This document shows positions 2-53,258 of a stretch of DNA of 64,000 nt, piece by piece. The stretch lies in IMG/VR virus record IMGVR_UViG_3300028909_000001; one strand, written 5' to 3'. A program made the position numbers and the translations under genes. This stretch comes from a virus (Duplodnaviria > Caudoviricetes). The first letter of the stretch is position 1. Every line of letters begins with the position of its first letter. Below the pieces are notes generated by a model. The model was not told the DNA's origin. It saw nothing but the letters and a program-made list of their open reading frames with translations, and did no database searches.

Positions 2-370
2 TCAGAAGAAGCAGCTACTCAATACTCACCTACCCTAACTAATTGTAGAGATTGTAGAGGTTGTAGTAATTGTGATGATTGTAGTTATTGTGATGATTGT
101 AGTAATTGTAGTGGTTGTAGTACTTGTGGAGGTTGTATTAATTGTAGTGTTTGTAGTGTTTGTAGTGATTGTAGTAGTTGTGGAGGTTGTATTAATTGTA
201 GTGTTTGTAGTGTTTGTAGTGATTGTAGTAGTTGTAATGATTGTAGTGATTGTAAAAAATGTTATAAATGTGATAATGGAACACATCTAGAGCCAGTTCA
301 AATTAAGACTGAAGTTATGATAAGACCAGAATTAGACATTAATGATAGAAAGTTGGAACCAGACTTATGA
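2..370 (+). CDS. (Cys-x-x)n repeat protein, family A copy 1 (5'-truncated by window edge)
   Basis: Frame from nt 2 reads SEEAATQYSPTLTNCRDCRGC...IRPELDINDRKLEPDL-TGA; TGA 368-370 overlaps the next ATG (ATGA). Not in the ORF track because the start lies outside the window. Confidence 0.85.
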   Translation, partial: SEEAATQYSPTLTNCRDCRGCSNCDDCSYCDDCSNCSGCSTCGGCINCSVCSVCSDCSSCGGCINCSVCSVCSDCSSCNDCSDCKKCYKCDNGTHLEPVQIKTEVMIRPELDINDRKLEPDL

Positions 371-744
371 CAATAACAAAAAGAAATAATAGATGGTATG
401 ACGAAAATAATAATAGTTGGATAACTGAAGAATCAGCTACTCAATACTCACCTACCTTAACTAATTGTTATGATTGTAGAGGTTGTAGTAATTGTAGTAG
501 TTGTAGAGATTGTTATAATTGTAGTTATTGTAGTAGTTGTAGTAATTGTAGTAGTTGTATTAATTGTAATAATTGTAGTAATTGTAGTAATTGTAATAAT
601 TGTAATAGGTGTAGTGATTGTAGTGATTGTAGTTATTGTAGTCGTTGTAGAGATTGTAGTGATTGGACTGATAATAAGAAATATGAACCGGTAATTAGAC
701 CATTTATAGACTGTACTAACAGACTATTAGAACCAGATTTATGA
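367..744 (+). CDS. (Cys-x-x)n repeat protein, family A copy 2
   Basis: Conserved leader MTITKRNNRWYDENNNSW..SPTLTNC, Cxx array, ends NRLLEPDL; ATGA overlaps at both ends. Confidence 0.9.
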   Translation: MTITKRNNRWYDENNNSWITEESATQYSPTLTNCYDCRGCSNCSSCRDCYNCSYCSSCSNCSSCINCNNCSNCSNCNNCNRCSDCSDCSYCSRCRDCSDWTDNKKYEPVIRPFIDCTNRLLEPDL

Positions 745-1238
745 ATAACAACCTTAAAATAGTAGAACAAAACATATTATTAGCAGACGCCCAAGTAGTT
801 GCTCATTGCTGTAATAATATGAACAAAATGGGTAGTGGGGTAGCCAGAGCCCTAAGATGTAGATTTCCGGAAGTATATGCAACTGATACCAAGTCTTATA
901 TTAACTTTGGTTCAGCTATGTTGGGTAAATGTGTGTTAGTTCCTATCACTACTCTACCTAATCAGACCAAGCTACTATACGTTGCCAATCTATATGGTCA
1001 ATTAGGTTATGGTACAATGCATCTTAGATATGTGCATTATGAAGGATTTTACTTAGCTTTAGAGTCATTAATAAAGCAAATGAGTGAGCAGAATATGACT
1101 AGACTGGCTTTACCTTATAAGATAGGTGCGGATAGGGCTGGCGGTAATTGGAATATTATTGAAACTATGGTTAAGGAGGTTATTAAAGGAAGTAACATTG
1201 AAGTTACTCTATATAAACTTCCTAAAAAGTTAATGTAG
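741..1238 (+). CDS. Macrodomain (ADP-ribose binding/hydrolase) protein
   Basis: VVAHCCNNMNKMGSGVARALRCRFP matches the macrodomain N-x-x-x-x-x-G-x-G-V-A loop; LYVANLYGQ and LALPYKIGADRAGGNW match the phage macrodomain C-terminal motifs. Confidence 0.85.
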   Translation: MNNNLKIVEQNILLADAQVVAHCCNNMNKMGSGVARALRCRFPEVYATDTKSYINFGSAMLGKCVLVPITTLPNQTKLLYVANLYGQLGYGTMHLRYVHYEGFYLALESLIKQMSEQNMTRLALPYKIGADRAGGNWNIIETMVKEVIKGSNIEVTLYKLPKKLM

Positions 1239-1240
1239 TT

Positions 1241-1474
1241 ATGACTCTTTATATCATTCTAAGACATATCAGATCTCCATCAACTAACGCTATTATAGAC
1301 GTCCTATATCAAGCGTTTCAAAATAAGGAGGCAGCCCTGGAATATATCAAATTTTTAACAGATAATAGTACTGTAGTAGGTGAATTTGAATTGAAGGAGT
1401 TTGTATCGGTTGAGAAAGATGAGATAACAATTAGAAGTGAGGGTGGGGAAAGAAGATTAGAACCAGATTTATGA
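1241..1474 (+). CDS. Small hypothetical protein, family B, with shared C-terminal tag
   Basis: 77 aa; MTLYII..KEAA..GEFELKEF..IRSEGGERRLEPDL; ATGA overlap with the next Cys gene. Confidence 0.8.
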   Translation: MTLYIILRHIRSPSTNAIIDVLYQAFQNKEAALEYIKFLTDNSTVVGEFELKEFVSVEKDEITIRSEGGERRLEPDL

Positions 1475-1884
1475 CAATAACTAAAAGAGATACTAGATGG
1501 TATGACGAAAACTATAATAGCTGGGATACTAAAGAATCAGCTACTTTACACTCACCTACCCTAACTGATTGTAGATGGTGTAGAGGTTGTAGTGATTGTA
1601 GAAGGTGTAGTAATTGTAGATATTGTAGTGATTGTAATGCTTGTAGTGGTTGTAATGGTTGTAGAGATTGTTATAATTGTAGTAATTGTATTGATTGTAG
1701 AGATTGTAATGGTTGTAGTGATTGTAGTAGTTGTAGAGATTGTATTTATTGTAGTAGTTGTAGTAATATTTCTTCAGAAAATGATAAATCGTGGTTTAAG
1801 TCCATGTATTATGGAGATGAAGTTAATAAGGAAATAAGACCAGAATTAGACATTAATAATAGAAAGCTAGACCTAGATTTATGA
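1471..1884 (+). CDS. (Cys-x-x)n repeat protein, family A copy 3
   Basis: Same leader and Cxx array; ends IRPELDINNRKLDLDL. Confidence 0.9.
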   Translation: MTITKRDTRWYDENYNSWDTKESATLHSPTLTDCRWCRGCSDCRRCSNCRYCSDCNACSGCNGCRDCYNCSNCIDCRDCNGCSDCSSCRDCIYCSSCSNISSENDKSWFKSMYYGDEVNKEIRPELDINNRKLDLDL

Positions 1885-2207
1885 TTGTATATGCTATTAA
1901 AATATTGAAAGTTAAATATAGTAGAAATACCCTACCTAATAAGTTTGTTAGAGTAGTTATTAAGTATATCGAATTTTATGATAGGGAAGGTTACTGTGAT
2001 GATGAAGAACAGACTAGTATTGAACCTGTAGATTTATACCAAGCCTCTTTGTATCTTAGTAAAGAAGCTGTGGAACAAGAAATTAAAAGGGTAAGGATGA
2101 TAAAAGAAGCGTACAAATACGAAATAGTTGAGATAGAATTAGCTGAGTTAAGTAAGCCTGAAATAAGAATAGAGAACCAGTACAGAAGATTAGATCTAGA
2201 ATTATAA
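1881..2207 (+). CDS. Small hypothetical protein, family B, with shared C-terminal tag
   Basis: 108 aa; MIVYAI..KEAV..IVEIELAEL..IRIENQYRRLDLEL. Confidence 0.8.
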   Translation: MIVYAIKILKVKYSRNTLPNKFVRVVIKYIEFYDREGYCDDEEQTSIEPVDLYQASLYLSKEAVEQEIKRVRMIKEAYKYEIVEIELAELSKPEIRIENQYRRLDLEL

Positions 2208-2212
2208 ACAAT

Positions 2213-2653
2213 ATGCCTAAAGCCACAAATATAAATTGTCATGCCGCCAAAGATATCAATAAACTACCAGATAACACAGTATTGATATCAATAAATGAAG
2301 AATATGAGCCACTTTATCCTTTAAAGTTGGATAGAGAGTCAGAAAATGTGTTAACTTTAAGATTTACTGATATAACTGCACCTTTAACTCATGAAGGCGA
2401 AATGTATCATCCTATTAGTGCTGAAGATGCTTTTAAAATATTAAAGTTCATTGATAAGCATTTAACCAAAGATTTCATAGTTCATTGTGCAGCTGGGGTA
2501 TCTAGAAGTTCAGCTATTTGTCTCTATCTACATATTATGCATTCATATGTGTTAAAAGACAATTTTTGGCTTTCTTCTTCACCTAATTGCTATGTACTTG
2601 GTATGTTAATGCGGCGTAAGGTTGAGCAGGAATCTATGTTAGACGAGATTTAG
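2213..2653 (+). CDS. Cys-dependent (PTP/dual-specificity-like) phosphatase
   Basis: P-loop IVHCAAGVSRSSAI (HCx5R); upstream LISI and LRFTDI motifs typical of small phage PTP-like proteins. Confidence 0.88.
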   Translation: MPKATNINCHAAKDINKLPDNTVLISINEEYEPLYPLKLDRESENVLTLRFTDITAPLTHEGEMYHPISAEDAFKILKFIDKHLTKDFIVHCAAGVSRSSAICLYLHIMHSYVLKDNFWLSSSPNCYVLGMLMRRKVEQESMLDEI

Positions 2654-2654
2654 T

Positions 2655-2900
2655 ATGTCAGATCCAAATCCTCGTATCTTTCCTACTCGATTTCGGCTTT
2701 TGAGTAATATGGAAGTCATAATAACTAAAGAAATAGATGTACAGTGGTGGGGTGATCTACATTATTTATTCGATGTAATTATAGAAGATAATAATAACTA
2801 CTTTTTAGTATATAATAAAGTAGGAGAGACACAGGTTAAAGCTATTATAAAAAGGAGAGAACTTAAACAGTATAATGGTGAATACTATGAAAATAACTAA
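2655..2900 (+). CDS. Hypothetical protein
   Basis: 81-aa ORF tightly packed between neighbours; no recognised motif. Confidence 0.65.
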   Translation: MSDPNPRIFPTRFRLLSNMEVIITKEIDVQWWGDLHYLFDVIIEDNNNYFLVYNKVGETQVKAIIKRRELKQYNGEYYENN

Positions 2901-3219
2901 AAGAGATGATAGATGGTATGACGAAAACGATAATAGTTGGTCTACAGAAGAATCAGCTACTCAATTCTCACCTACTCTAACTAATTGTATTAGTTGTAGA
3001 GATTGTAGATGGTGTAATGATTGTAGAGATTGTAGAGATTGTTATAATTGTAGTAATTGTAGTAATTGTAGTAATTGTAGTAGTTGTACTTATTGTAGAT
3101 GGTGTAATGATTGTAGTAACTGTATTGATTGTAGTGATTGGACTGATAATAAGAAGTATGAACCAGTAACTAGACCGTTTATAGATTGTAGAGATAGACT
3201 ATTAGAACCAGATTTATGA
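2887..3219 (+). CDS. (Cys-x-x)n repeat protein, family A copy 4
   Basis: Start moved from 2875 to ATG 2887 to match the paralogue leader (MKITKRDDRWYDEN); ends DRLLEPDL. Confidence 0.88.
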   Translation: MKITKRDDRWYDENDNSWSTEESATQFSPTLTNCISCRDCRWCNDCRDCRDCYNCSNCSNCSNCSSCTYCRWCNDCSNCIDCSDWTDNKKYEPVTRPFIDCRDRLLEPDL

Positions 3220-3614
3220 AAATAACAAAAATAGCTAATAGATGGTATGACGAAAACAATAATAGCTGGGATACTGAAGAAGCAGCTACTTTATATTCAC
3301 CTACCCTAACTAATTGTTATAATTGTAGTAATTGTAGTAATTGTAGTGTTTGTAGTGATTGTAGTAATTGGTGTAGTAATTGTAATGATTGTGATAGTTG
3401 TAGAGATTGTATTAATTGTAATAATTGTGGTAGTTGTAGTAGTTGTAGTAATTGTAGGAGTTGTTGTAGGTGTAGTGATTGTGATAATTGTAAGTTTATT
3501 GCTTCTTTATTTGATAGAGTTGAAGTTGATGCAAGTTTAATTGAAAGCTGCAAAGAAAATTTAGTTAGAGAAGAATTTGACTTAAACAATAGAAAACTGG
3601 AAATAGAACTATGA
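3216..3614 (+). CDS. (Cys-x-x)n repeat protein, family A copy 5
   Basis: Leader plus Cxx array; ends VREEFDLNNRKLEIEL. Confidence 0.9.
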   Translation: MKITKIANRWYDENNNSWDTEEAATLYSPTLTNCYNCSNCSNCSVCSDCSNWCSNCNDCDSCRDCINCNNCGSCSSCSNCRSCCRCSDCDNCKFIASLFDRVEVDASLIESCKENLVREEFDLNNRKLEIEL

Positions 3615-3883
3615 AGACACTATACGAATTTGAAGAACAACAAAAAGAACTTATAGCTGCTTGTGAGAGAGAAGCTAAAGCTAAATTAGAAGGCAAAAAT
3701 GTATTTATGGATACTTTTGCGCATCGGTTTGAAGATATAGTTGAAGAAATACAAAGAGATGCTAGGAGAGAAGGGGTTAGAGATTGTATAAGGGATATAC
3801 ATATGTGTAAATCAGTTCAATCTAATCCAGACATTATTTATACCCATGAATTAATAATAGCAAGATTAATTAAACTATTATGA
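3611..3883 (+). CDS. Hypothetical protein (helical)
   Basis: 90-aa ORF coupled by ATGA overlap; no recognised motif. Confidence 0.7.
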   Translation: MKTLYEFEEQQKELIAACEREAKAKLEGKNVFMDTFAHRFEDIVEEIQRDARREGVRDCIRDIHMCKSVQSNPDIIYTHELIIARLIKLL

Positions 3884-3931
3884 ACATATATGAAGTAGTA
3901 GATAAATATGAACTAGCACAATATATTCTAA

Positions 3932-4225
3932 ATGAAAATATACCTAATACAGGTTCTAAAACTAAATGGTTTTCTATATGATAATGCTGATGAAATTCGG
4001 TATTTAGCAGTGAATTCTTATATAGACTATACAACAAGGGAAGTAAAAAATGCTAGAGTATTTGAAGATAGAGAAAAAATTGGAGACGAACTATATGAAA
4101 TTACACTAATGAATAGTTTTAATTTTCTCGTTACTAAAATTCTTGAGTTTGAGCTAGTAGAATTTAAAGGTAATAAGTCAATTAGAAGTGAGGGAGGAGA
4201 GAGAAGATTAGAACTAGACTTATGA
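3932..4225 (+). CDS. Small hypothetical protein, family B, with shared C-terminal tag
   Basis: 97 aa; MKIYLI..REKI..ILEFELVEF..IRSEGGERRLELDL. Confidence 0.8.
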   Translation: MKIYLIQVLKLNGFLYDNADEIRYLAVNSYIDYTTREVKNARVFEDREKIGDELYEITLMNSFNFLVTKILEFELVEFKGNKSIRSEGGERRLELDL

Positions 4226-4701
4226 CAATAACTAAAATAGATAATAGATGGTATGACGAAAACAATAATAGTTGGTCTACAGAAGAACTAGCTACTACTG
4301 ACTCTCCTACCCTAACTAATTGTAGTAGTTGTAGAGATTGTAGATGGTGTAGGAATTGTATTCATTGTAAAGGTTGTATTGGTTGTATTGATTGTTATGA
4401 TTGTAATGATTGTAGTAATTGTAGTAGTTGTAGTGGTTGTAGTAGTTGTATTGATTGTAATCGTTGTAGTGATTGTACTGGCTGTATTGATTGTAGTTAT
4501 TGTAGTTATTGTAATAATTGTAGTGAGTGTAGTAACTGTAAAAACTGTTATAAATGTAATACCTTTTCTTTTTGTAGAAACTGTGCTTTTGGTTTTAAGA
4601 AAAGCTATTATAAACCTATGAAGTATAAACGTAGAGCTAAGAAGAGTAAAATTAGACAGGAATATGACATTAATGATAGAAGATTGGAGATTGAACTGTG
4701 A
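4222..4701 (+). CDS. (Cys-x-x)n repeat protein, family A copy 6 (longest array)
   Basis: Leader, long Cxx array, basic linker, ends IRQEYDINDRRLEIEL. Confidence 0.9.
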   Translation: MTITKIDNRWYDENNNSWSTEELATTDSPTLTNCSSCRDCRWCRNCIHCKGCIGCIDCYDCNDCSNCSSCSGCSSCIDCNRCSDCTGCIDCSYCSYCNNCSECSNCKNCYKCNTFSFCRNCAFGFKKSYYKPMKYKRRAKKSKIRQEYDINDRRLEIEL

Positions 4702-4943
4702 TAGCAAACCATATAATATTAACCAGCTGTTACTTAGTAGTAGGGATACTTATAGCTTTAAGAACTGTTATTGAATATACTGACATCCATTACTATCCTA
4801 AGAAGTGTAAGTTAATATTATTTATCCTAGTAATTGCCATATATGCTGTAATAGATGTAACAATTTGGCCTTTATATGCAATTTTAGGTTTGATATCAGG
4901 AATAAGAAGATTAACCAAAGAATTTTTTAAGAATAACAACTAG
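4698..4943 (+). CDS. Small membrane protein (about 2 TM segments)
   Basis: GTG start overlapping the TGA stop; two long hydrophobic stretches and a basic C-terminus. Confidence 0.7.
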   Translation: MIANHIILTSCYLVVGILIALRTVIEYTDIHYYPKKCKLILFILVIAIYAVIDVTIWPLYAILGLISGIRRLTKEFFKNNN

Positions 4944-4968
4944 ACAAACAAACAAATTAACGTATAAT
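4941..4968 (+). promoter_or_regulatory. Sigma70-like promoter, probably giving a leaderless transcript
   Basis: TAGACA (4941-4946), 16 nt spacer, TATAAT (4963-4968); ATG 4975 lies 6 nt after the -10 box. Confidence 0.6.
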
Positions 4969-4974
4969 AAACAT

Positions 4975-5607
4975 ATGAAATTAACATCAATAACATCAAT
5001 AATGGCAGTAATTAGTCTATGCACTATTTCTGCTTTCGGTCAAACTAATGTCACTCAAGTCCCAAACTTGATGGCCAACATTCCTGTCTCAACAGCTGTG
5101 CAGGCTATCTATCAGGACATTGCAAATTCTGGTATTATGCAGGCAACTAATTGGGGAGTTAGTCCTTATGGTACTTATGCACCTAAGTCAGCTAACAAAT
5201 ATGGTGGTGGTGTATTGGCAGTATATAATGTCCCAACACTTACCGGGTCTTTAGGAGCAGTTGGTGCAGTGTTAGGGGCAGATTGGTTGGGGTCCTGGTC
5301 TTTGGTCAGTGGTTCAGTAACTCTTTCAACACCTACGCATCCATTAGCATCAACATCACTATTAAACTGGCTTCCTACCGGTATTCGTAACATTGAAGCT
5401 GATCCTATTGCTATTGCTGGTATCGGAACACCCTTATCTGGGTCATCTGGGGCAGCTGAGTTGTGGGATATAGGATACAACGTTGATATTTATAATACTG
5501 CTACTAGTAAAGTCGGCGCTGGGTTTACTTGGGGTGAATGGATCAATGCCGGAACTGAGTCTGGACATAGATATCACTTATTCGTTAGTTGGAAATACAA
5601 CTTCTAA
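4975..5607 (+). CDS. Secreted, probable outer-membrane beta-barrel protein
   Basis: Sec-type signal peptide MKLTSITSIMAVISLCTISAFG|Q; amphipathic Gly/aromatic strands; C-terminus YHLFVSWKYNF fits the BAM beta-signal (terminal Phe, aromatic at -3). Confidence 0.65.
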   Translation: MKLTSITSIMAVISLCTISAFGQTNVTQVPNLMANIPVSTAVQAIYQDIANSGIMQATNWGVSPYGTYAPKSANKYGGGVLAVYNVPTLTGSLGAVGAVLGADWLGSWSLVSGSVTLSTPTHPLASTSLLNWLPTGIRNIEADPIAIAGIGTPLSGSSGAAELWDIGYNVDIYNTATSKVGAGFTWGEWINAGTESGHRYHLFVSWKYNF

Positions 5608-5637
5608 TTTAGTTAGAGTAGTTTATACTACTACACT

Positions 5638-5961
5638 ATGAAACTAACAAAAAGAAATGATAGATGGTATGACGAAAACAATAATAGTTGGATAACAGAA
5701 CAACTAGCTACTCTACACTCACCTAATCTAACTAATTGTAACTGGTGTAGTGATTGTAGTAATTGTAATAATTGTAATAGTTGTAGTGATTGTAGTGATT
5801 GTAGAGATTGTTATATGTGTGTTAATTGTAGGAGTTGTAATCATCTTGCAAATAAGAAAAACTATAAACCACAACCTATTAAATCTAAGAAAAAGAAGAA
5901 AATTACTAAAATTAGACAAGAATACAATATTAACGATAGAAGATTGGAACTAGAATTATGA
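5638..5961 (+). CDS. (Cys-x-x)n repeat protein, family A copy 7 (shortest array)
   Basis: Leader plus Cxx array; ends IRQEYNINDRRLELEL. Confidence 0.9.
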   Translation: MKLTKRNDRWYDENNNSWITEQLATLHSPNLTNCNWCSDCSNCNNCNSCSDCSDCRDCYMCVNCRSCNHLANKKNYKPQPIKSKKKKKITKIRQEYNINDRRLELEL

Positions 5962-6656
5962 AAATAATAGCAGATGGTGATAGTTGGAACAGCTACCCAC
6001 TTCCTTTCTCTGGTGGTGGGTTGGCTGATCATTTAGCTGTTGTGTTAGATATTGATATTGAAAACTATGCCCATCCCGGTGATAGTACTGAAGAAACAAT
6101 GGGCTTAAAGAAGAGATTAAAGTTGGAACAATATCTACCAAACAGTGATATCTTATTATTCTCAGGTGGTGGTGATGATTTTGTGGGTGATCAGCTTCCT
6201 ATATTTCTAAATGATAATAAGGATGGAAATATTAATAAAGCCATAGATCTTGATAGACTTGATGCAGCCATGGATCTTGCTATAGCAGATTATGAGGATC
6301 TGTTTCAGTTAAGAGATGAAATAGCTCCTAACTGTCTCATAATTACACATAGCTATGATTTTCCTGTTCCTGAAATGATTGGTAATGGTGTATTGTGGTT
6401 AGGTCCTTGGATTAAACCTGGGATGGATCATTGTGGCTGGACTAATCCTAAAGATGCTGCTGATATAACGAAGCTTATTCTTTTAGAATTTGAAAGAAGA
6501 ATAAGTTTGCTCAGTCTACCTAATCATCTTCATATTAATTTTCAAGGAACATTAACTACTTCTGACTGGGGTAATGAAATACATCCTAATAGTAGTGGTT
6601 GGAAGAAGTTAGCTAATCAAATTAAATTGAAATTAGTCCATTATTTAAATAAATAA
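5958..6656 (+). CDS. SGNH/GDSL-type hydrolase
   Basis: Block I IIADGDSW, block II AHPG, block III SGGGDDF, block V NEIHP. Confidence 0.85.
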   Translation: MKIIADGDSWNSYPLPFSGGGLADHLAVVLDIDIENYAHPGDSTEETMGLKKRLKLEQYLPNSDILLFSGGGDDFVGDQLPIFLNDNKDGNINKAIDLDRLDAAMDLAIADYEDLFQLRDEIAPNCLIITHSYDFPVPEMIGNGVLWLGPWIKPGMDHCGWTNPKDAADITKLILLEFERRISLLSLPNHLHINFQGTLTTSDWGNEIHPNSSGWKKLANQIKLKLVHYLNK

Positions 6657-6669
6657 TATCAATCTTAAC

Positions 6670-6697
6670 ATAGCCTCCTACAAAATTAGGAGGCTAT
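6670..6697 (+). terminator. Hairpin, probable intrinsic terminator or processing stem
   Basis: Perfect 11-bp stem ATAGCCTCCTA / TAGGAGGCTAT with a 6-nt loop, in the intergenic gap; weak U-tract. Confidence 0.6.
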
Positions 6698-6717
6698 TAT
6701 CATTTACAAACAGCACT

Positions 6718-7131
6718 ATGAAACTAAGAAAACGAAATAATAGATGGTATGACGAAAATAATAATAGTTGGATAACTGAAGAATCAGCTACTCAATACTC
6801 ACCTACCTTAACTAATTGTTATGATTGTAGAGGTTGTAGTAATTGTAGTAGTTGTAGAGATTGTTATAATTGTAGTTATTGTAGTAGTTGTAGTAATTGT
6901 AGTAGTTGTATTAATTGTTATAATTGTAGTGATTGTAGTAATTGTAGAAATTGTATTAGTTGTAGTCGTTGTAGTGGTTGTAGTATTTGTAAAGGTTGCA
7001 AACAGTCAATAGAATTAGACTTTAAGAAAAACTATAAACCACAGCCTATTAAATCTAAGAAAAAGAATAAAATTGCTAAAATTAGACAGGAATACAATAT
7101 TAATGATAGAAGATTGGAGATTGAACTATGA
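6718..7131 (+). CDS. (Cys-x-x)n repeat protein, family A copy 8 (mosaic of copies 2 and 9)
   Basis: 6734-6918 is identical to 383-567; 6987-7111 is identical to 7540-7664; ends RRLEIEL. Confidence 0.9.
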   Translation: MKLRKRNNRWYDENNNSWITEESATQYSPTLTNCYDCRGCSNCSSCRDCYNCSYCSSCSNCSSCINCYNCSDCSNCRNCISCSRCSGCSICKGCKQSIELDFKKNYKPQPIKSKKKNKIAKIRQEYNINDRRLEIEL

Positions 7132-7310
7132 TAATAAACAATAAAAATACAATCGATGATACTTATATATTGGTTGATAAGATAAATGGAACATTAAATT
7201 TTGAAGACCTTACCATAGTTGATTTAAGTGATGATGAAGTTAGAATACTTAATTACGCTTATGCTTTAAATGGTAGTTCTTTACGTTATATTTCAGTAAC
7301 ACAATCATGA
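7128..7310 (+). CDS. Small hypothetical protein
   Basis: 60 aa; ATGA overlaps on both sides. Confidence 0.65.
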   Translation: MIINNKNTIDDTYILVDKINGTLNFEDLTIVDLSDDEVRILNYAYALNGSSLRYISVTQS

Positions 7311-7684
7311 AACTAACAAAAAGAGCTGATAGATGGTATGACGAAAACGGTAATAGTTGGATAACTGAAGAACTAGCTACTACATATTCACCTACCTTAA
7401 CTAATTGTTATAATTGTAGAGATTGTAGTAGTTGTAGTAATTGTAGTAGTTGTATTAATTGTAGTTATTGTAGTGATTGTATTAATTGTAATAGTTGTAG
7501 AAGTTGTAGTCGTTGTAGTGCTTGTTATAATTGTATAGGTTGTAAAGGTTGCAAACAGTCAATAGAATTAGACTTTAAGAAAAACTATAAACCACAGCCT
7601 ATTAAATCTAAGAAAAAGAATAAAATTGCTAAAATTAGACAGGAATACAATATTAATGATAGAAAGCTAGAATTAGAATTATGA
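7307..7684 (+). CDS. (Cys-x-x)n repeat protein, family A copy 9
   Basis: Leader plus Cxx array; ends IRQEYNINDRKLELEL. Confidence 0.9.
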   Translation: MKLTKRADRWYDENGNSWITEELATTYSPTLTNCYNCRDCSSCSNCSSCINCSYCSDCINCNSCRSCSRCSACYNCIGCKGCKQSIELDFKKNYKPQPIKSKKKNKIAKIRQEYNINDRKLELEL

Positions 7685-7795
7685 AACTTCACATATTATA
7701 TAATATAGCAACAATGGCAGATATTAAGTTGACTAAGAATGAAGCTAGACCACTTAATTATAGCCCTCCCAGATATGTTCTGTTTTAATCTACCT

Positions 7796-10415: not shown

Positions 10416-12911
10416 ATGTTTAAGAAATTCATAGCATCATCAATCCTATTATTTAGTTTAGTATCAATCCAGGCTAATATTATATCAGTAGCTGTTATTA
10501 CTGATACTAATGGGGTTTTAGCAGGTTCAAGTACTAATCTATTCCAGACCAATGCTCCGGCTTTGGCTGCAACACTGACTAATAGCACAGTGTTAGGATT
10601 TACCATACCTCAGAATATCCTTAGTAATAATGCTACTGGACCTGTAACCTTTAGTAATAATGTAACCGTGAACAACACACTATTGGTGAGTGGTAATTTT
10701 ACGGCTACGAATGGCATTACACAGACAGCTAGTGAGACGATTTACGGACTAACTGGATTTGATTTCATTGGTGGCTTTCAGGCAATTAATACAACTACTC
10801 GACAGCTTCGTGATTCTGGTGGAAACTTAGTAGCAACGTGGACGAATGGATTTAACCTCGTCGAGCCATCGAATCTAGGCGCTGGGACTAATCTGTCCGG
10901 CCCAAACATCGTCGGTATTATCAACCCGACCAATCTACCTTCGTTTGTCACTAATGGCGCATCACCAGCATTGAATCTGGTCAACGCAACCAACTACTCG
11001 GTTTCCACCGCAACCGGCACGCTCCCAATCGCCAGCCTGCCAGGGAGTGTGGTGACGACGAATAACTACGTCAGCACAAATACTGCAATAACGATATATA
11101 ATGACACTCTTGCCAGAACTTACTGCAATACAAATCATGTATCAGACATTGAAGCACAGTCATTTCTTACAACAGCTTGGAATGATCAGTACGCATTAAG
11201 TGTCGCGTCTAATGTGGTGTCAGCTGGATGCTTTGATAGCCGGTTCAACCCCACCAATTACGATTTAATGCTGAACCCGATGACAGTCCCATTGGGGGTG
11301 AGCTACGGTTTTACAGGCCCGAACATCAACGGAGCACGGGAGTCCGGAACCAACATTTTCACGGTCAACATTGCCCCATTAACTAATTTCTTTGCGGTCT
11401 TATGGTATTGGAATAATGCCAGCAATATGGATGCAAATAACCTTAACGAGGGTAATGGGGCGTGTCCATGGGTGGCACTTTATAATACCAATAATTGGTC
11501 CGGCATTGCTGGTACGACCATTGACGTAAACCAAAATGAACAGATATGGGCAAGCCCATTTGGTACAAATTTCAACACTTATCAGAACCCATTTAATATT
11601 TCGACAAATCAAGCCAAGATCATGATGAATGGGCAGTACGATTCGCGCACACCGATGGGAATCCCTTATGTCATCGGCATTAGTGGTAACACCAATGGTC
11701 AAGCCAGTTATTGGTGCCAGTCGAAGCCTGGTTTCTTCACATTCGCGGCAGTGCCAACGAATGTCAACAACTTTGGTCCAGCAGGCGGCCCTTATAATCA
11801 ATTATGGATTGGTGGTGCTGGAACCAATTTTGCCTTGAGTGCACCTGGGAACTTCATCACCAACGCCGTGGGCACTCTGGGTGGTTATATCCTGTACAAT
11901 GTTAGTGCGGAAAATAACCCGTCTGTTGCTATCGCGGGATACAAATTTGCGACCGATTTAATGCGTTATCACTCGGCGGTTGATTTTGGCGGGTCGAGTC
12001 TCATTAATTTTGCTGTACCTGCCAAGTTCGTCGGTCTGGGAAGCGGCATTGTCTACACCAACTCGATGCCTTATTTGTTCGCGGTCGAGAACCCAGACGT
12101 GCTGACGCTTGTTGATGCTTCGCCCGGAAGCACGATGGCGACCTATAACAATGAGGGTTATGGGACAAACTCTTGGAGTCCGGGTGCCATGACCAACCTA
12201 AACCGCTTGCGCTATCCCAGTGTAATATTTGAGACTGATGGGCCGCGCAACGATGCCTTTGCCAACACGTCCATTGCCAATATTATCTCTTATTGGAACT
12301 CGTTTTATATCCCCTTATACAATGTGGGCATCCCAATTTGGTTAATAGATACACACTGGGACTACCGCTTTGGGGCGTCAACGAATCTGTATTGGAAGAA
12401 CGTGCAAGCGGCCTTGTATACCAACTTTCTGCAATCCATCGCCGGGGTAATCCGGGAGTCGGATTATGTGGGGTCAAATGTCGAGGCCGCATTTTCGGCC
12501 GACGTGCCCCCCATCCATCCTGACGCACGCACTCTTTTCGCGCACAATTTTAACCTCGGTTTCGCGGATCTCTGTGCATTCAAACCGTGGCCGTATCCGA
12601 ACTGGTCAGCAACATGGCTGAATTACAATTCCAGCATGGGGACGGTTGATGCCGGGATTCAGGGAATGCAACAGCTGTCGTTTCAATTGGGGGATACAAA
12701 TGGCGCACAACGCACGACATTTGATGGAAGTGCATTGACCAATCTAGTATATCGCATTTACAACTTAACGAGTACTCCGACATGGTTTGGAATTTCTAAC
12801 GTATCGCTTTTGTGGGAAAGCAACAATGCAGCAGGGACCGCTGTACCAATCGGATACAGAACGTACTTTGATGCTGGACAGGTGGCACATACAGCAGTGA
12901 CTGGATTCTAA
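10416..12911 (+). CDS. Large Asn/Thr-rich protein with signal-peptide-like N-terminus; receptor-binding or glycan-active candidate
   Basis: MFKKFIASSILLFSLVSIQA|N; first ~45 aa resemble 15052-16944; body is GC-rich relative to the rest of the window. Confidence 0.65.
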   Translation: MFKKFIASSILLFSLVSIQANIISVAVITDTNGVLAGSSTNLFQTNAPALAATLTNSTVLGFTIPQNILSNNATGPVTFSNNVTVNNTLLVSGNFTATNGITQTASETIYGLTGFDFIGGFQAINTTTRQLRDSGGNLVATWTNGFNLVEPSNLGAGTNLSGPNIVGIINPTNLPSFVTNGASPALNLVNATNYSVSTATGTLPIASLPGSVVTTNNYVSTNTAITIYNDTLARTYCNTNHVSDIEAQSFLTTAWNDQYALSVASNVVSAGCFDSRFNPTNYDLMLNPMTVPLGVSYGFTGPNINGARESGTNIFTVNIAPLTNFFAVLWYWNNASNMDANNLNEGNGACPWVALYNTNNWSGIAGTTIDVNQNEQIWASPFGTNFNTYQNPFNISTNQAKIMMNGQYDSRTPMGIPYVIGISGNTNGQASYWCQSKPGFFTFAAVPTNVNNFGPAGGPYNQLWIGGAGTNFALSAPGNFITNAVGTLGGYILYNVSAENNPSVAIAGYKFATDLMRYHSAVDFGGSSLINFAVPAKFVGLGSGIVYTNSMPYLFAVENPDVLTLVDASPGSTMATYNNEGYGTNSWSPGAMTNLNRLRYPSVIFETDGPRNDAFANTSIANIISYWNSFYIPLYNVGIPIWLIDTHWDYRFGASTNLYWKNVQAALYTNFLQSIAGVIRESDYVGSNVEAAFSADVPPIHPDARTLFAHNFNLGFADLCAFKPWPYPNWSATWLNYNSSMGTVDAGIQGMQQLSFQLGDTNGAQRTTFDGSALTNLVYRIYNLTSTPTWFGISNVSLLWESNNAAGTAVPIGYRTYFDAGQVAHTAVTGF

Positions 12912-12986
12912 CTATGACCCTAACCACCGCAATCCTGTTTTTGACCAATATTATTAAGTGAATTCCGAAATCAGACTTAAATTAAA

Positions 12987-14819
12987 ATGAAGATCGTGAA
13001 TCAAGTATTTATTCTATTATTGTTATCAATTAACTATATTTTAGCTTCTACCTCCATACCTAATGAGTATTGGGTATCTACAGTTAATACCGGTAATATC
13101 TTTCCTACTAATGGTACTATAGATAATCCATTAGACGGTTCAAATAATACTAATTTCGATTTGAATATGGGTCTAATCCCAGCAAATTCTACTATTCACT
13201 TATTAACAGGTACATTCCAAACTAAAGGATCGTGGCAAGGATATGGATTAAAGTCTGGACAGAAAGTATGCGGTAGTGGCATTGATAATACTATAGTCCA
13301 ATTAGTAGCACCAACTTTTGTAGGAGGTTCAGGAGTATCAGTAATGGGAAATTTTGGTTCAGTTACTAACAATGAGATACAAGACTTAACTATAGATTGT
13401 AATGTAAGTAATGTTTTAGATACATATAGTGGAGTTGGATTGATTGGTACAGAAAATAGTATAAGAAGAGTTAAGGTAATTAACTGCGGTAAATTTGGTG
13501 GCAATAGTGAGGCTTGGGGAATAGTGATAGCAAATTATTATTTACCAGACAGTATAGGAAATATTATAGAAGAATGTGAAGTATCTCAGTATAGGGGTGG
13601 TGGAGGTATCACTAGTATAGCATTAGCAGGTGGTGGAGATAATTTTGGTAGTAATTCAGAACCAGCTCAAACTATATCTGGTATTATAAGAAATAATAAA
13701 GTTATATTAGTTAGTACAAATTATCCTATATATTCAAAAGGTTCATGGTTTGGTATCGGTTTAGGTGGTTGGCAGCATGATGTATTGATTGAAGGCAATT
13801 ATCTAGAAGGTTGTGACGTTGGCATACCTGGAGATACGGGTTGGGCACATAATGTAATAATTCAAAATAATCAAATACTGGATTGTGATTACGGAGTAGA
13901 AGCTATAGGATTTGATAGAGTTAATATAACTATAGCCAATAATCATGTAAGGATATTAAGTTTCTTTAATAACTCAACTAATGTAGGAGCTGAACCATTT
14001 CCTCCCTGTGCATTCTATTTTTATCCAGGAACTATATATACTTCATTTACGAACATCTGGATAACAGGGAATGTAGTTGAATATGTAGCAGGTGTATCTA
14101 ATGCAATCTGGCAAGGATTCGTAGCTGGTGGGGCATTTACTGGATTAAATGTAAGCGGTAATAGTTATGATAGTTCAATGAATTATAATATATTTACCTG
14201 GGCACCTTCCATTAATGTAGCTATTCATAACAATACAGATTTATTCGGAAATCCAATGCTAGGTATAGGTACTAATATATTCACTGATCCTATAAATGTG
14301 AGGAATGATTTAACTGTAAATGGTGCTATAACAGGTAATGGGTCTACTATAACAAATATTAATACTACTAATTTGGTTGGGTTTATAACATCTTCATTAA
14401 TATCAGGTAACTACTCTAATATAGTTAACTTTACAAGTACTAGTAATACATTCATAGGTAATTATATAGGTAATGGAGTTAATCTTACTAATCTAACCGC
14501 CTCCAATCTATTACCTGGAACTTATTCTAATAACTTTACCGGTACTTTTAGTGGGAGTGGACTTAATCTAACTAATTTAAATACTACTAACCTAAATAAG
14601 GGTACAATTAGTTCTTCATTGATTTCTGGCACATATTCCAATACAATTAATCTTAACAACAATACTAATAAGTTAACTGGTACATTTTCAGGTAATGGTA
14701 GTGGAGTTACAAATATACCTTATCTAGGATTAATAGGTGGATTGACAACTAATGAAGTAATATCATCTAATATAACTCTAGTATATAGTAATGGGGTATT
14801 AGTAGGTATTAAGAAATAA
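12987..14819 (+). CDS. Right-handed beta-helix (pectate-lyase-like) protein with signal peptide and C-terminal GNGxNLTNL repeats
   Basis: KVCGSGIDNTIVQL and NNEIQDLTIDCN, repeated I-x-x-N-x-I/V turns; hydrophobic N-terminus. Confidence 0.75.
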   Translation: MKIVNQVFILLLLSINYILASTSIPNEYWVSTVNTGNIFPTNGTIDNPLDGSNNTNFDLNMGLIPANSTIHLLTGTFQTKGSWQGYGLKSGQKVCGSGIDNTIVQLVAPTFVGGSGVSVMGNFGSVTNNEIQDLTIDCNVSNVLDTYSGVGLIGTENSIRRVKVINCGKFGGNSEAWGIVIANYYLPDSIGNIIEECEVSQYRGGGGITSIALAGGGDNFGSNSEPAQTISGIIRNNKVILVSTNYPIYSKGSWFGIGLGGWQHDVLIEGNYLEGCDVGIPGDTGWAHNVIIQNNQILDCDYGVEAIGFDRVNITIANNHVRILSFFNNSTNVGAEPFPPCAFYFYPGTIYTSFTNIWITGNVVEYVAGVSNAIWQGFVAGGAFTGLNVSGNSYDSSMNYNIFTWAPSINVAIHNNTDLFGNPMLGIGTNIFTDPINVRNDLTVNGAITGNGSTITNINTTNLVGFITSSLISGNYSNIVNFTSTSNTFIGNYIGNGVNLTNLTASNLLPGTYSNNFTGTFSGSGLNLTNLNTTNLNKGTISSSLISGTYSNTINLNNNTNKLTGTFSGNGSGVTNIPYLGLIGGLTTNEVISSNITLVYSNGVLVGIKK

Positions 14820-14820
14820 T

Positions 14821-15048
14821 ATGAATACGAACGAAATTCAATTAGCACAACAAATAGCTAGTGCAGCAGGTTATCATTTAAGTGGTTATGAAGTAGCATT
14901 ACTACTTGCACTCCCTCACACACTCTATCTTCATATCTGGGCTTGTATTAAGTTCTGGACTCAATTAGGTGGGTGGAAGGGTGTTAGTCTATTCTTTAAA
15001 ACTGGTACTTTAAATCCAGAGATAATTGAGGAAGTTAAACCGAAATAA
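14821..15048 (+). CDS. Small membrane protein (holin-like, unconfirmed)
   Basis: 75 aa, one hydrophobic segment, WTQLGGWKG motif, charged tail. Confidence 0.5.
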   Translation: MNTNEIQLAQQIASAAGYHLSGYEVALLLALPHTLYLHIWACIKFWTQLGGWKGVSLFFKTGTLNPEIIEEVKPK

Positions 15049-15051
15049 TTT

Positions 15052-16944
15052 ATGTTTAAGAAATATTTAATACCGTTAGCTTTATTATTTAATGTATTTT
15101 GCGTTAAAGCCCAACTAGTAGATTTGGAAGTTGTTACTGATACTAACGAAGTTCTGCTAGGTCAAAGTACAAATATATTTGCCTCCAACTCTATTCCTTT
15201 TAATGCTGCAGTAAATGCTAGTAGCCCTACAATTGTGACTAATTTTACCTTTATTTCACCGATGCAATATGGTGCAGTTGGTAACGGTATAGCAAATGAT
15301 ACTTTGGCTTTGAGCAATTCAGTTACCGCCATGAACGCGGGCAACATCCTGGTATGGGATGGGCAGGGGCAGACGTATTATATCACCTCTGGAGTTGCTT
15401 GGACTAGGGGACATATTGAAATTAGGAATGCAACCATAGTAGTCCCTAGTAATTTCGTTGGGTCTGTGTTTATACACAGCCAATCAATACAAGGACAGTT
15501 AGGCAATGGAGCTTATTATCACGGTCTAACAATTGAGAGACAAGGAACAAATGCCCCCGATCCATCCGTTGTAGGTATCCAAAATGGGGTATTAGGATTT
15601 AGCTATTTCGAAGATTTAAAAACAGAATTTGTTCACTTTTCAAACCTCTGGAGGAATGTAGAGATTATTAATACACCGCAATTCGATATTAGACATTGTA
15701 TGATGGGTAACTGTTGGAGCAACAAGGTTTATGTGGCCCAGTCGGTTGCACAATCGCAGACGTCGAGCGAGGGCGGTGACGAGAGCATAATCACGCTGAA
15801 CGACATGAACACCCTGGATGACAATAACTCGTCACCGACCAGCGTTGTTGATTCACAGCGTCATAATTGCATCGACATCCAGCTAGATGCGTACTGCATC
15901 CATCTAGAGGTCAGCTACAATAACGGCGGCAGCGATAAGCAAGCTTTCAAAGTGTCGCCCTGGGTGGGTGGATCAACGATCTTTTTCCGGGGTGGCGAAT
16001 ATGAAGGGATGTTTGCGAGCTATCCCACAAATCTGTGCCAGTTCGAAATCTGGAACTCAGTAGTGCACTTCGAGGATTGCCACATTGCGGGGAACGGTGT
16101 CTTTGGAACAAGTAATTATCTTGCCGCAATTGGTTTGTACGCGACGAACGGTCAGCATATCTCTTTCCGGTCGGACACGTTTACCGGCCAGCTGCCGAAT
16201 GAGACGAACGTATTCGATATTTGGACGGCAGACGGATTCATGGGCAACATTGATTTTTTGCAATATCCGCAATATTTATCTGCAAACACATGTGGTTTTA
16301 CGTGGCATACAAACTTGAATGATGTAGGGGTAAATTATCCGATTCAAGGGACGGTGCCGGCAGTAATTAGCGGGACAAATACGGTAGTTTGGGCGCCAGG
16401 CCAAGGCACGGTAACAATTGGGGCGGCAGGATGTATGGTTGCAGTGAATGAAAACGGCGTAGGACAATATTGCACGTTTGGCAATTCAGCGAATTTTAAT
16501 AACGGTTTTTTGTCGCTTGGGAATGCTTATTTTAATAACGGAGTCACGGAAAACGGAGGAAGACCAGACATGTCGGTCAATGCTCCTTATTCTCACGTCT
16601 TAGACTTTTTTGTGCAATCATCAGGTTTATCAGATTCACACTGGGTTAACGGGACAAATTGGGTAGCAGATGTTGTTGATTATACCAATCAAGCTAATGT
16701 ATTTGCTGGTTCAATCGGAATATTAGGTACTAATCAAGCAACTATGACCTCTACCGGTTATACTAACAATAATACCTATGATGTTAGAGTATTCAATCTT
16801 CAAGGTACAACTATCATATTTAGTAATAACGTTAGTACCGCCAATGCTATTATAGGTACGATTGCTGTTAATAATGATTTCCTTACTCTACATCCTCACG
16901 AAATGTTATATGGTACTGGTATGACTGGTAGTATCATACAATAA
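15052..16944 (+). CDS. Tailspike-like beta-helix protein with signal-peptide-like N-terminus
   Basis: ISPMQYGAVGNGIANDTLAL matches the pectate_lyase_3/tailspike (F/Y)GAxGDGxxDDT start motif; MFKKYLIPLALLFNVFCVKA|Q. Confidence 0.75.
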   Translation: MFKKYLIPLALLFNVFCVKAQLVDLEVVTDTNEVLLGQSTNIFASNSIPFNAAVNASSPTIVTNFTFISPMQYGAVGNGIANDTLALSNSVTAMNAGNILVWDGQGQTYYITSGVAWTRGHIEIRNATIVVPSNFVGSVFIHSQSIQGQLGNGAYYHGLTIERQGTNAPDPSVVGIQNGVLGFSYFEDLKTEFVHFSNLWRNVEIINTPQFDIRHCMMGNCWSNKVYVAQSVAQSQTSSEGGDESIITLNDMNTLDDNNSSPTSVVDSQRHNCIDIQLDAYCIHLEVSYNNGGSDKQAFKVSPWVGGSTIFFRGGEYEGMFASYPTNLCQFEIWNSVVHFEDCHIAGNGVFGTSNYLAAIGLYATNGQHISFRSDTFTGQLPNETNVFDIWTADGFMGNIDFLQYPQYLSANTCGFTWHTNLNDVGVNYPIQGTVPAVISGTNTVVWAPGQGTVTIGAAGCMVAVNENGVGQYCTFGNSANFNNGFLSLGNAYFNNGVTENGGRPDMSVNAPYSHVLDFFVQSSGLSDSHWVNGTNWVADVVDYTNQANVFAGSIGILGTNQATMTSTGYTNNNTYDVRVFNLQGTTIIFSNNVSTANAIIGTIAVNNDFLTLHPHEMLYGTGMTGSIIQ

Positions 16945-49719: not shown

Positions 49720-50115
49720 CTATTCGTCAACCAAAGTTCTAGCACTATAACCGAAAGCAGCTTCCATTACGGGGTCGTAGGATTCAGCAGTTTTAGGTCT
49801 AGCCGCAATTCTAGCAGGTTTACCTATTTGCGCCACATCACTAGCAGCACAAACCTTTTCGAGTGTCCTTATTATATAGATAGGATCTTCCATAGCTTTT
49901 TTAACAAAGCTTCTCTTCTCATGTTCCCCACTCAAAAAATCACTATCATATAAAACATCAGCAACCTTATTCAAAGCCATCTTATATTTTTCTTTATTTA
50001 ATTCTTGAACGGTAGCAGCTTTTATTTGATTCAACAATCTATCTTGCAAATCTTCATTTACTTCTATAGCTAACTTAATAAAGGATGCCGCTTGATGTAA
50101 AAAATTATTATCCAT
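49720..50115 (-). CDS. Head-module helical protein
   Basis: 131 aa; FIKLA and PKTAE K-x-A motifs. Confidence 0.7.
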   Translation of the reverse strand: MDNNFLHQAASFIKLAIEVNEDLQDRLLNQIKAATVQELNKEKYKMALNKVADVLYDSDFLSGEHEKRSFVKKAMEDPIYIIRTLEKVCAASDVAQIGKPARIAARPKTAESYDPVMEAAFGYSARTLVDE

Positions 50116-50272
50116 TAGCTTGTTTAGATAGATGTTTTACTGCACTTATATAATCGATTACCTTTAACTTTTCTTTATCTGGGAGTTTATCCAGACTATT
50201 GCTATTAACTTTGCTAGAAGTAGGTTTATTTACTTCTAGCTTAGTCTGAAGTTTATTTAACAGAGAAGGCAT
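50108..50272 (-). CDS. Small head-module protein (54 aa; below the ORF-track cutoff)
   Basis: Manually translated MPSLLNKLQTK..LSKQANG; TAATG overlap with the scaffold stop; fills the gap exactly. Confidence 0.6.
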   Translation of the reverse strand: MPSLLNKLQTKLEVNKPTSSKVNSNSLDKLPDKEKLKVIDYISAVKHLSKQANG

Positions 50273-51438: not shown

Positions 51439-51480
51439 AATTATTATTGGTTAGTGGTTATTAGTTATTATCTAGCTTTA

Positions 51481-52281
51481 TTAGGAGGGACCTTGGGGAC
51501 CAGCTGGCATTGGAGGCATTGCACCAGGACCTCCTGGGGGTGCTCCGGCAGGACCTGCTCCGGCTGGACTTGGTCCACCACCTTGGCCACTAATTGCAGC
51601 TAAAAGACTTTGAATTATTTGTTGCTGTTCTTCAGGAGGCAAGCTTTGAAGCATCTGCATAATTTGTGCAGTTTCAGCATCAGCACCTGGAGCACCTTGG
51701 CTAGGATCACTACCAGGACCACTAGGACCACCAGGACTTGGAGGTGCACCAGCAGAAGGATCACTAGGAGGAGCACCGGCACCAGCATCAGGAGGTTGCT
51801 TAAACATTCCGGTACTATCATCTGAACCATGTGCTTGCTTCTCTCTATCAACAACATCAACTAAAAGTGAAACAGCTTCATCTTGACTTAGACCAGCTTG
51901 TTTAGCCATACCAATAAACCCTTCAGCATATTGGCTGAGTCTTGGGTCATTAGCGATGGCATTAACCTTAGACATAAATGCCAACTTAGTATTGGTGGCA
52001 TCTAGAGCAGTCTTGGTGAATTGCAAAGCTTGGGCAACATTAGCACCATTCATAAATGCTTCATTAAGAATACCATTTACATAACTAATCGAAGAAGCAT
52101 TCTTTTCCATTCCAGCATTCTTAAGTAAACTATCTACAATATCTAGTTTAGGAGCAGCTGCAGTTTTTGTTTGTCTACTAGCAATTTGAGAGGCCTTGTT
52201 TAGAAGGGCGGCAATGTTTTGTTGAGGTACACCATTAGCCAAAGCTTGCTTAGTGAACTCTTGGACGTATAAATTATTCAT
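51481..52281 (-). CDS. Head-module protein with three helical repeats and a Pro/Gly-rich tail
   Basis: YVQEFTKQALANG / YVNGILNEAFMNG / YAEGFIGMAKQAG repeats. Confidence 0.7.
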   Translation of the reverse strand: MNNLYVQEFTKQALANGVPQQNIAALLNKASQIASRQTKTAAAPKLDIVDSLLKNAGMEKNASSISYVNGILNEAFMNGANVAQALQFTKTALDATNTKLAFMSKVNAIANDPRLSQYAEGFIGMAKQAGLSQDEAVSLLVDVVDREKQAHGSDDSTGMFKQPPDAGAGAPPSDPSAGAPPSPGGPSGPGSDPSQGAPGADAETAQIMQMLQSLPPEEQQQIIQSLLAAISGQGGGPSPAGAGPAGAPPGGPGAMPPMPAGPQGPS

Positions 52282-53217: not shown

Positions 53218-53258
53218 ATTGTTAATTGTAAGTGATATCTTTAATCATTTTAACTTAT

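Follow-up and report, generated by a model that had tools for sequence, protein, structure and literature searches.

A strictly C-terminal peptide tail common to unrelated small proteins in gene arrays of a giant peat-bog phage

Introduction

Short terminal peptides that address unrelated proteins to a common partner are known from several systems. In phage T4, the C-terminal tails of gp43, gp33 and gp55 dock on gp45, and the bacterial beta-clamp is bound through motifs of the types QL[SD]LF and QLxLxL. The T4 internal proteins (IPI-III and Alt) carry an N-terminal capsid targeting sequence that is removed by the head protease at an L/I-x-E site, and encapsulin cargo is loaded by C-terminal peptides of a GSL-type consensus that bind the HK97-fold shell. 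The ssrA degron ends in LAA, and the adaptor SspB binds ClpX through its C-terminal tail (LRVVK). Poxvirus ankyrin-repeat proteins end in a PRANC/F-box-like motif, a folded domain of about 30–50 residues. Class II PDZ ligands end in hydrophobic-x-hydrophobic-COOH, and bacterial PDZ proteases are mostly periplasmic. Here we analyse a C-terminal tail found in a 64,000-nucleotide stretch of viral DNA (IMG/VR record IMGVR_UViG_3300028909_000001, Caudoviricetes; hereafter the window), at one end of which an array of small genes includes twelve whose products share the tail. Cys repeats are present in nine of these twelve proteins and absent from the other three.

The phage is a giant of >210 kb from peat bogs that was seen in at least 60 sample blocks, with contigs of up to 212,886 and 217,546 bp. 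The window is contained in a 127-kb assembly. Relatives were collected by way of the Cys-repeat family and by exact-protein look-ups. A first-pass annotation, made from the letters of the window alone, had proposed that the tail is an address tag plugging interchangeable proteins into one shared hub. We report that the tail is strictly C-terminal and selected as a peptide, and argue that it probably serves in docking.

Results

The tail is confined to protein ends

The core of the tail is R-x-L-[D/E]-x-x-L-COOH. When the 127-kb assembly was searched in six frames with the stricter pattern R[RKL]L[ED]x[DE]L, 15 occurrences were found and a stop codon followed directly in 15/15 (P ~ 2e-17 at a six-frame stop fraction of 0.076); none lay out of frame or in intergenic DNA. 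The enrichment at C-termini that the first-pass annotation had put forward as a check is borne out, and the tag extends beyond the window. Alignment of 36 tails gave a conserved module of about 16 residues, longer than the seven initially noted, with the consensus [IV]R-x-E-x4-[DN]-R-x-L-[DE]-x-x-L. In the 51 distinct tails that served for the comparison of tail DNA, the terminal residue was Leu throughout (51/51), and the residue before the central Leu was R (19), K (15), L (11) or N (6), with Q in 0/51. The P-2 position held Pro in 26/51 tails and L, I or F in 25/51, and the tails end in the acidic sequence [DE]-x-[DE]-L. G-S-L was absent from all 36 aligned tails. With looser patterns, two further tails of degenerate sequence came up shortly before the start of the window: a 175-aa protein ends in DRNLDPNL and a short Cys protein in RNLDPFL.

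The tag has a narrow distribution in the sets that were searched. As a control, 80 loci were taken from more distantly related phages that encode the AAA family of the arrays (see below); none of their 1985 distinct proteins had the pattern. A scan of the 2.9 million contigs of IMG/VR with a degenerate DNA pattern for the tail and a following ATGA gave multiple matches in two contigs, both of them this phage and from one peat metagenome, with stretches of 6 matches (plus a single one elsewhere on that contig, in a second stretch) and of 9; the 45 remaining contigs were matched once each, roughly as often as chance would give. An hmmsearch with a profile of the tail against 1.84 billion representatives returned three matches at E <= 0.001, all at the last residue of the protein, the motif being too short for this method to map the range of the tag. 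No description of the tag was found in literature searches. The same genome also has a second, N-terminal tag, an F-I-N-G-F-I-K-A-A-type leader with which several structural-region proteins begin (window 50000–64000, minus strand, and beyond).

Selection acts on the peptide

The central Leu of the 51 tails is encoded by TTA (26), CTA (10), TTG (8), CTT (4) and CTG (3), which fits the synonymous usage of the genome (chi-square p = 0.44), and five codons are in use for the Arg at −7. Right-aligned comparison of 74 related gene pairs, paralogues among them, gave 0.084 synonymous differences per codon in the last 8 codons, 0.101 in the preceding 8 and 0.072 in the linker. The corresponding non-synonymous differences were 0.14, 0.13 and 0.41, so that the tail lies about three times below the linker at equal synonymous divergence. 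Change in the tag is therefore not neutral in terms of non-synonymous and synonymous differences (dN/dS); neutral change was among the outcomes that the first-pass annotation had named as speaking against its proposal. Its reading of synonymous codon variation as a sign of selection on the peptide holds as well: the codon test, the dN/dS-type count and the synonymous variation within the tail flavours of individual lineages (see below) agree. The tail is an element selected as a peptide, and it is common to unrelated protein bodies.

Several explanations at the level of RNA or decoding were rejected. Genes of this genome are generally without Shine-Dalgarno sequences and GGAG occurs in only 2/12 tails of the window; a ribosome-binding site therefore does not explain the conservation of the tail. 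A conserved RNA structure was rejected, since the junctions gave no consensus structure and 0 predicted pairs. Fusion with the next gene by −1 frameshifting would suit the downstream frame, but the tails lack a conserved slippery site, and those ending in CTA cannot slip. Read-through of the stop codon was rejected, as a further stop lies within 2–7 codons.

What was found corresponds to a short linear docking motif, i.e. a conserved short peptide that lies outside folded domains, is portable and is under purifying selection at the peptide level, with the disorder of the linkers being judged from composition and from models of low confidence.

The carriers are diverse

Across the populations of the phage, 95 distinct tagged proteins fell into 18 BLAST clusters of bodies. 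The two unrelated families of the first-pass annotation are too low a count even for the window, where the three non-Cys bodies, with the tail removed, lack significant similarity to each other. The largest cluster is the Cys-repeat family with 58 proteins. Several others, seen on related contigs, consist of proteins of 80–97 residues that start with M-x-E-[FY]-x-[IV]-G-D and are putatively SH3-like; further tagged bodies are the small proteins of the window and proteins of 90, 101, 140–146, 150 and 175 residues. Tagged proteins are small, paralogous and fast-changing and have no Pfam match.

The Cys family has a conserved N-terminus of 33 residues, M-x-I/L-T-K-R-x-x-R-W-Y-D-E-N-N-N-S-W...S-P-T-L-T-N-C, followed by a variable number of C-x-x triplets (10–35 copies) and K-rich linkers; the tail often stands behind such a low-complexity linker. 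In AlphaFold2 models, a Cys-repeat protein reached a mean predicted local distance difference test (pLDDT) score of 51, with confidence confined to residues 1–30, and a 97-aa protein a mean of 45. Residues 1–30 of the Cys family are modelled as a mini-domain of a beta-hairpin and a helix (pLDDT 81–83), and the tail is given no regular structure in a weak model (pLDDT 44–52). The ESM Atlas returned only viral clusters without names.

Distant members of the Cys family from other environments keep the N-terminus and the Cys repeats and have different C-termini, and within this phage, too, a Cys paralogue has an unrelated C-terminal end. The tail is therefore an exchangeable C-terminal module, and the C-terminus of the Cys family seems to be a site of swapped localisation modules. 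Many other phages encode the family with C-terminal modules of different kinds; three of these proteins end in DLSG[EK]IIEI[KD]G[MK]KYKL[IVT]KV, one of them with an extra terminal L, and this ending may be another tag. In the same phage population, one Cys-repeat paralogue (L011:14023–14628) ends in a hydrophobic, membrane-anchor-like stretch, ...LVVLLGGTLLILMLVN, in place of the tail. An isolated tagged Cys gene at 89445–89840 adjoins a long coding stretch of G-S and G-S-R dipeptide repeats (window coordinates ~87400–87750, outside the window).

Most tagged genes overlap the next start codon

In a non-redundant set of 277 called genes, 47 were tagged (~1 in 6, about 17%) and 230 were not. The stop codon overlapped the next start as ATGA in 35/47 tagged genes (74%) compared to 28/230 untagged genes (12%; Fisher p = 2e-17). 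In the window, 11/12 tagged genes have an ATGA or GTGA overlap, counting the GTGA at 4698 and a 9-codon open reading frame (ORF) after 7684. The link is reflected in the codons: the terminal Leu codon ends in A in 49/51 tails versus 59% expected, and the stop is TGA in 41/51 tails versus 13/69 long ORFs genome-wide, TAA being used in the other 10/51. Both preferences follow from the ATGA overlap. The overlap constrains just the third base of the last codon, and hence does not dictate the Leu or the residues upstream of it. An intact tail without a coupled downstream gene is present in 7/47 tagged genes, e.g. 7307–7684 and the isolated 89445–89840. The link between tag and ATGA is also present in the sister lineages described below.

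The DNA of the tail thus doubles as a translational restart junction, and this overlap cannot alone explain the conserved residues. The first-pass annotation had held that the tail is not simply a coupling signal. This stands insofar as the residues go beyond what the overlap demands; it went too far in setting coupling aside, given how often tagged genes overlap their neighbour. The coupling may have one of two reasons, either that the tail RNA is a good unstructured restart site or that the nascent peptide acts in cis, neither of which alone accounts for the motif.

Sister lineages have their own flavours

The phage has a syntenic block in common with other huge phages, comprising DNA ligase, cREC_REC, AAA, RlaP, NT5C, HNH, a WGR-like protein and PurA, with the tagged arrays near the AAA gene. 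Three sister lineages (L160, L076 and L075), which have the ligase-cREC-AAA-HNH block in the same order and show 52–58% identity in the AAA protein, each have a tail flavour of their own. In L160 it is ERRLDP[QD]L (ERRLDPQL and ERRLDPDL, twice each), in L076 R[RN]L[DN][PW][DE]L (RNLNPDL, RRLDPDL, RRLDPEL and RRLDWDL), and in L075 R[NR]I[TES]L[EQR]L (RNITLEL, RRIELRL, RNISLQL and RNITLGEL). The tails vary in synonymous codons inside each sister lineage, which makes gene conversion unlikely. Across the four tagged lineages, with G+C of 0.33–0.44 and different codons, the tail is kept on unrelated proteins. An orthologous WGR-like protein, laid out as a domain, a K/P-rich linker of 35–50 residues and the tail, carries it in 4/4 lineages and always in the local flavour. 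Judging from these comparisons, the tag is old and drifts in concert.

Small sets of shared endings were noted in other phages with the same AAA family: [KR]IEIVEQ[ML]E[LV] and E[ES]R[KR]IAV, twice each, in L161 (ENA NODE_216, 108 kb), and [YS]LNT[GK]D three times in L132. The endings in L161 and L132 may be private tags. Tags linked to the AAA gene are not a general rule, as 80 further AAA loci lack a shared C-terminal motif, bar two weak triplets (L126 and L132).

The arrays and the AAA ATPase

Untagged genes of the arrays encode a Tad4 homologue, cREC_REC, Macro-like, phosphatase-like, HNH and RecA-like proteins, and a protein with a weak radical-SAM match. The Tad4 homologue (PF25186, E = 4e-11; a Thoeris inhibitor) is ATGA-coupled directly behind a tagged Cys gene, at L011:5174–5500 and L157:11550–11879. 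By gene content, the arrays look like counter-defence and host-takeover islands, and their content varies between samples of the same phage. On related contigs they include a classic-clade AAA ATPase of 326 aa (L011:3625–4602) that is ATGA-coupled to a tagged Cys gene; its best relatives in the PDB are Cdc48/VAT/p97 D2 and YjoB (E ~ 1e-20). An identical AAA protein is encoded on a 217-kb contig with the same AAA-region gene array as in the relatives of the phage. The AAA family (~330 aa) was found at 430 IMG/VR loci, on hundreds of large phage contigs, and has an N-terminal L-[ED]-[ED]-F-G-T motif. Most homologues end in [VILM]-G-F-G, reminiscent of the IGF loops through which ClpX docks on ClpP; this is taken here as a lead only. 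Profiling of gene content around the AAA gene for a reader of the tail was not discriminating.

The window array

The array of the window is listed in Table 1. All 12 tagged gene ends of the first-pass annotation, from 370 to 7684, were reproduced exactly by ORF listing and codon-by-codon reading, as was its division into 9/12 Cys-repeat and 3/12 other proteins. Its further remarks on the array were also accurate. The upstream [IV]R-x-E that it saw in most tails is present in 10/12, the genes ending at 744 and 3219 having [IT]RPF there; four Cys genes (starts 2875, 5638, 6718 and 7307) are preceded by untagged genes; and the array enzymes, i.e. the Macro, dual-specificity-phosphatase and SGNH-like genes, are without the tail. 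The first gene extends beyond the window edge, its full extent being −55 to 370 (141 aa).

Table 1. Genes of the tagged array at the start of the window, with tail sequences and junctions to the following gene.
Gene product	Position	Strand	Tail	Junction or match
Cys-repeat protein	2–370	+	RKLEPDL	ATGA stop/start overlap with next gene; 5' end cut by window edge
Cys-repeat protein, 125 aa	367–744	+	RLLEPDL	ATGA overlap with Macro-domain gene
Macro-domain-like protein, 165 aa	741–1238	+	untagged	PF01661, E = 0.004, below Pfam cut-off
Small non-Cys protein, 77 aa	1241–1474	+	RRLEPDL	ATGA overlap
Cys-repeat protein, 137 aa	1471–1884	+	RKLDLDL	ATGA overlap
Small non-Cys protein, 108 aa	1881–2207	+	RRLDLEL	TAA stop; next start 6 nucleotides downstream
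Dual-specificity-phosphatase-like protein, 146 aa	2213–2653	+	untagged	PF00782, E = 5e-5, below cut-off
Cys-repeat protein, 114 aa	2875–3219	+	RLLEPDL	ATGA overlap
Cys-repeat protein, 132 aa	3216–3614	+	RKLEIEL	ATGA overlap
Small non-Cys protein, 97 aa	3932–4225	+	RRLELDL	ATGA overlap
Cys-repeat protein, 159 aa	4222–4701	+	RRLEIEL	GTGA overlap (4698) with small membrane-protein gene
Cys-repeat protein, 107 aa	5638–5961	+	RRLELEL	ATGA overlap with SGNH/GDSL-like gene
SGNH/GDSL-like hydrolase, 232 aa	5958–6656	+	untagged	weak match
Cys-repeat protein, 137 aa	6718–7131	+	RRLEIEL	ATGA overlap
Cys-repeat protein, 125 aa, last array gene	7307–7684	+	RKLELEL	ATGA kept

The array can be parsed into units that start at the ATGA or GTGA right behind a tail and contain 0–2 untagged genes with one tagged gene last, e.g. 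Macro plus the 77-aa protein or SGNH plus a Cys protein. After the last tail (window 7681–7710), the ATGA opens just a 9-codon ORF starting M-K-L, which may be the remnant of a further Cys gene start.

Elsewhere in the window, an 852-aa protein (55889–58444, minus strand) combines endonuclease-like and head-maturation-protease-like PHROG matches. Three large proteins of 831, 610 and 630 aa (10416–16944, plus strand) have signal-peptide-like N-termini, as does a 210-aa protein at 4975–5607. Together with the absent Shine-Dalgarno sites, these N-termini hint at a Bacteroidota-like host. When bacterial and archaeal genomes were scanned for the Cys family, no relatives came up, and hence no pointer to the host.

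Discussion

The reading that we favour, and hold to be probable though by no means certain, is that the tail is a C-terminal docking motif borne on a linker and directed at one co-evolving hub. The alternation of hydrophobic and acidic residues in the last five positions and the strictly free end suggest an extended C-terminal ligand that would insert into one shared reader, by which the variable bodies would all reach the same hub through tethering, sorting or hand-over. If the hub co-evolves with the tag, all tags of one genome should have the same flavour and sister phages should differ. The observed pattern, one flavour per genome and another in each sister, is the one expected if the tags co-evolve with a single reader. 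The peptide role would fix the residues, and the overlap would fix the third base of the last codon and the TGA stop. Of the address tag proposed in the first-pass annotation, the peptide-level, strictly C-terminal element common to unrelated bodies has stood; the clamp consensus as the signal of the hub has not, with Gln in 0/51 tails.

Several points weigh against docking. No reader protein was identified for the tail, no clamp, PDZ or Clp protein having been found, and all known tagged lineages are uncultured. Pfam and PHROGs gave nothing for the tagged bodies except one PHROG without a name for the Cys family, and the models are too poor to tell whether the tail packs on its own body. The 74 gene pairs, taken from different sources, include paralogues and are not independent; the dN/dS-type count is crude, its direction being clear. 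Finally, the strong ATGA link means that the conservation lies partly at the level of DNA or translation, which would be compatible with a cis function at the ribosome.

Such a function could take the form of a coupler in which the last 8–16 residues, as nascent peptide and/or as unstructured A/G-rich RNA, hold or recycle the ribosome for restart at the overlapping ATG in a host without Shine-Dalgarno initiation. The strong excess of ATGA overlaps at tagged genes, the preference for TGA stops and A-ending Leu codons, the persistence of the overlap link in sister lineages, the junction RNA predicted to be unstructured and the general lack of Shine-Dalgarno sequences all agree with a coupler. 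Even so we consider it unlikely, because 7/47 tagged genes have an intact tail with nothing coupled behind it, 10/51 tails end in TAA, and the literature searched holds no such bacterial peptide. To our knowledge, a coupling peptide of this kind has no bacterial precedent. It would also leave unexplained that the tail is found on small non-enzymatic proteins only, and on the WGR-like orthologue behind a 40-residue linker in four lineages. In a narrower version, which we rate as quite unlikely, the tail acts inside the ribosome: the nascent peptide and the UGA stop would hold the terminating ribosome, with restart on the overlapping AUG, and docking after release could be an additional role. 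A mere by-product of DNA junction duplication or cassette recombination, where tail and ATGA are homology for shuffling and the peptide has no function, was named as the alternative in the first-pass annotation. The array does parse into units with an ATGA linking each tail to the next unit and its tagged gene, its content differs between samples of the same phage, and the junctions that precede Cys genes have DNA in common to either side. However, synonymous sites of the tail diverge as fast as those of the linker while the amino acids are kept, the tail is never out of frame or intergenic, and it is retained on unrelated proteins in four lineages that differ in G+C and codons. This explanation is already disfavoured and appears highly improbable.

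Two further proposals are concerned with what might read the tail. A specific version of docking has an AAA+ unfoldase or protease as the reader and the tail as a degron or adaptor-tethering peptide. The gene of the Cdc48/VAT-like AAA ATPase is part of the arrays and is coupled by ATGA to a tagged Cys gene, the identical protein recurs on the 217-kb contig with the same array, and most homologues have the [VILM]-G-F-G ending, whose likeness to the IGF loops of ClpX is a lead. Attractive as this candidate is, it is doubtful: the AAA family extends far beyond the tag, with 430 loci in IMG/VR, none of the 1985 proteins of the 80 control loci tagged and few loci with any shared C-terminal motif, and no peptidase partner was identified. 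The leading precedent of the first-pass annotation was a tail that binds the sliding clamp. The pattern x-L-x-[LIP]-x-L resembles QLxLxL, and LDPFL variants resemble the T4 sequence LDFLF; moreover, genes of replication and recombination surround the arrays (RecA-like, DNA ligase and HNH by Pfam; RuvC-like and Cas4-like on a reading of the sequence only). Against this, the Gln that defines the motif at its first position is missing from all 51 tails, which have R, K, L or N there, half have Pro where Leu is needed, and clamp motifs may be internal whereas the tag is always at the very end. It would be implausible for ~17% of genes to encode clamp clients, and no clamp gene was seen in the available phage sequence. 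Clamp binding is thus very improbable.

If docking is correct and one peptide addresses ~1 in 6 genes to one reader, then that reader would be a central hub of the infection cycle, and the tag would be a ready label for the fast-evolving accessory proteins of the phage, many of them among counter-defence genes. The tag also provides a handle for finding such genes in metagenomes and for pulling down the hub. The tight ATGA link raises the question of how long arrays of small genes are translated in hosts without Shine-Dalgarno use; should the nascent-peptide version apply, the tail would amount to a coupling device for a host of this type, portable and encoded in the peptide.

The tag belongs to a known kind, the portable terminal docking or address peptide, of which no described member like it was found. 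With clamp tails it has in common a short hydrophobic/acidic peptide at the C-terminus of unrelated proteins, which in the phage would likewise plug them into one hub; it differs in the absence of Gln (51/51), in the frequent Pro at the Leu position and in having dozens of clients rather than three to ten. The T4 capsid targeting sequence and encapsulin peptides are likewise portable terminal addresses on unrelated, fast-evolving cargo. The former is N-terminal and cleaved, whereas the phage tag is always at the extreme C-terminus, and the GSL-type consensus of the latter is absent from the phage tails. The tagged genes have early-type and counter-defence genes as neighbours, and the separate N-terminal FINGFIKAA-type leader on structural-region proteins makes a capsid-loading role of the C-terminal tag less likely. 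The ssrA and SspB peptides resemble the tag as free C-terminal peptides on flexible linkers, in their case read by an AAA+ machine, and an AAA ATPase is encoded in the arrays; yet the tails have acidic ends without likeness to LAA or LRVVK, and the array AAA is Cdc48/VAT-like, not ClpX. Like PDZ ligands, the tag stands strictly at the C-terminus with Leu at P0, its residues alternate in a beta-strand-like manner, and roughly one tail in two is hydrophobic at P-2. It differs in the Pro at P-2 in the other half, the tagged proteins are without a signal peptide, and no PDZ protein was found. The poxvirus PRANC proteins offer a parallel in a large, variable viral family for host range and immune evasion that docks on one host hub through a conserved C-terminal element. 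There, however, one family carries a folded domain, where the phage places a linear motif of 7–16 residues on at least 18 unrelated bodies.

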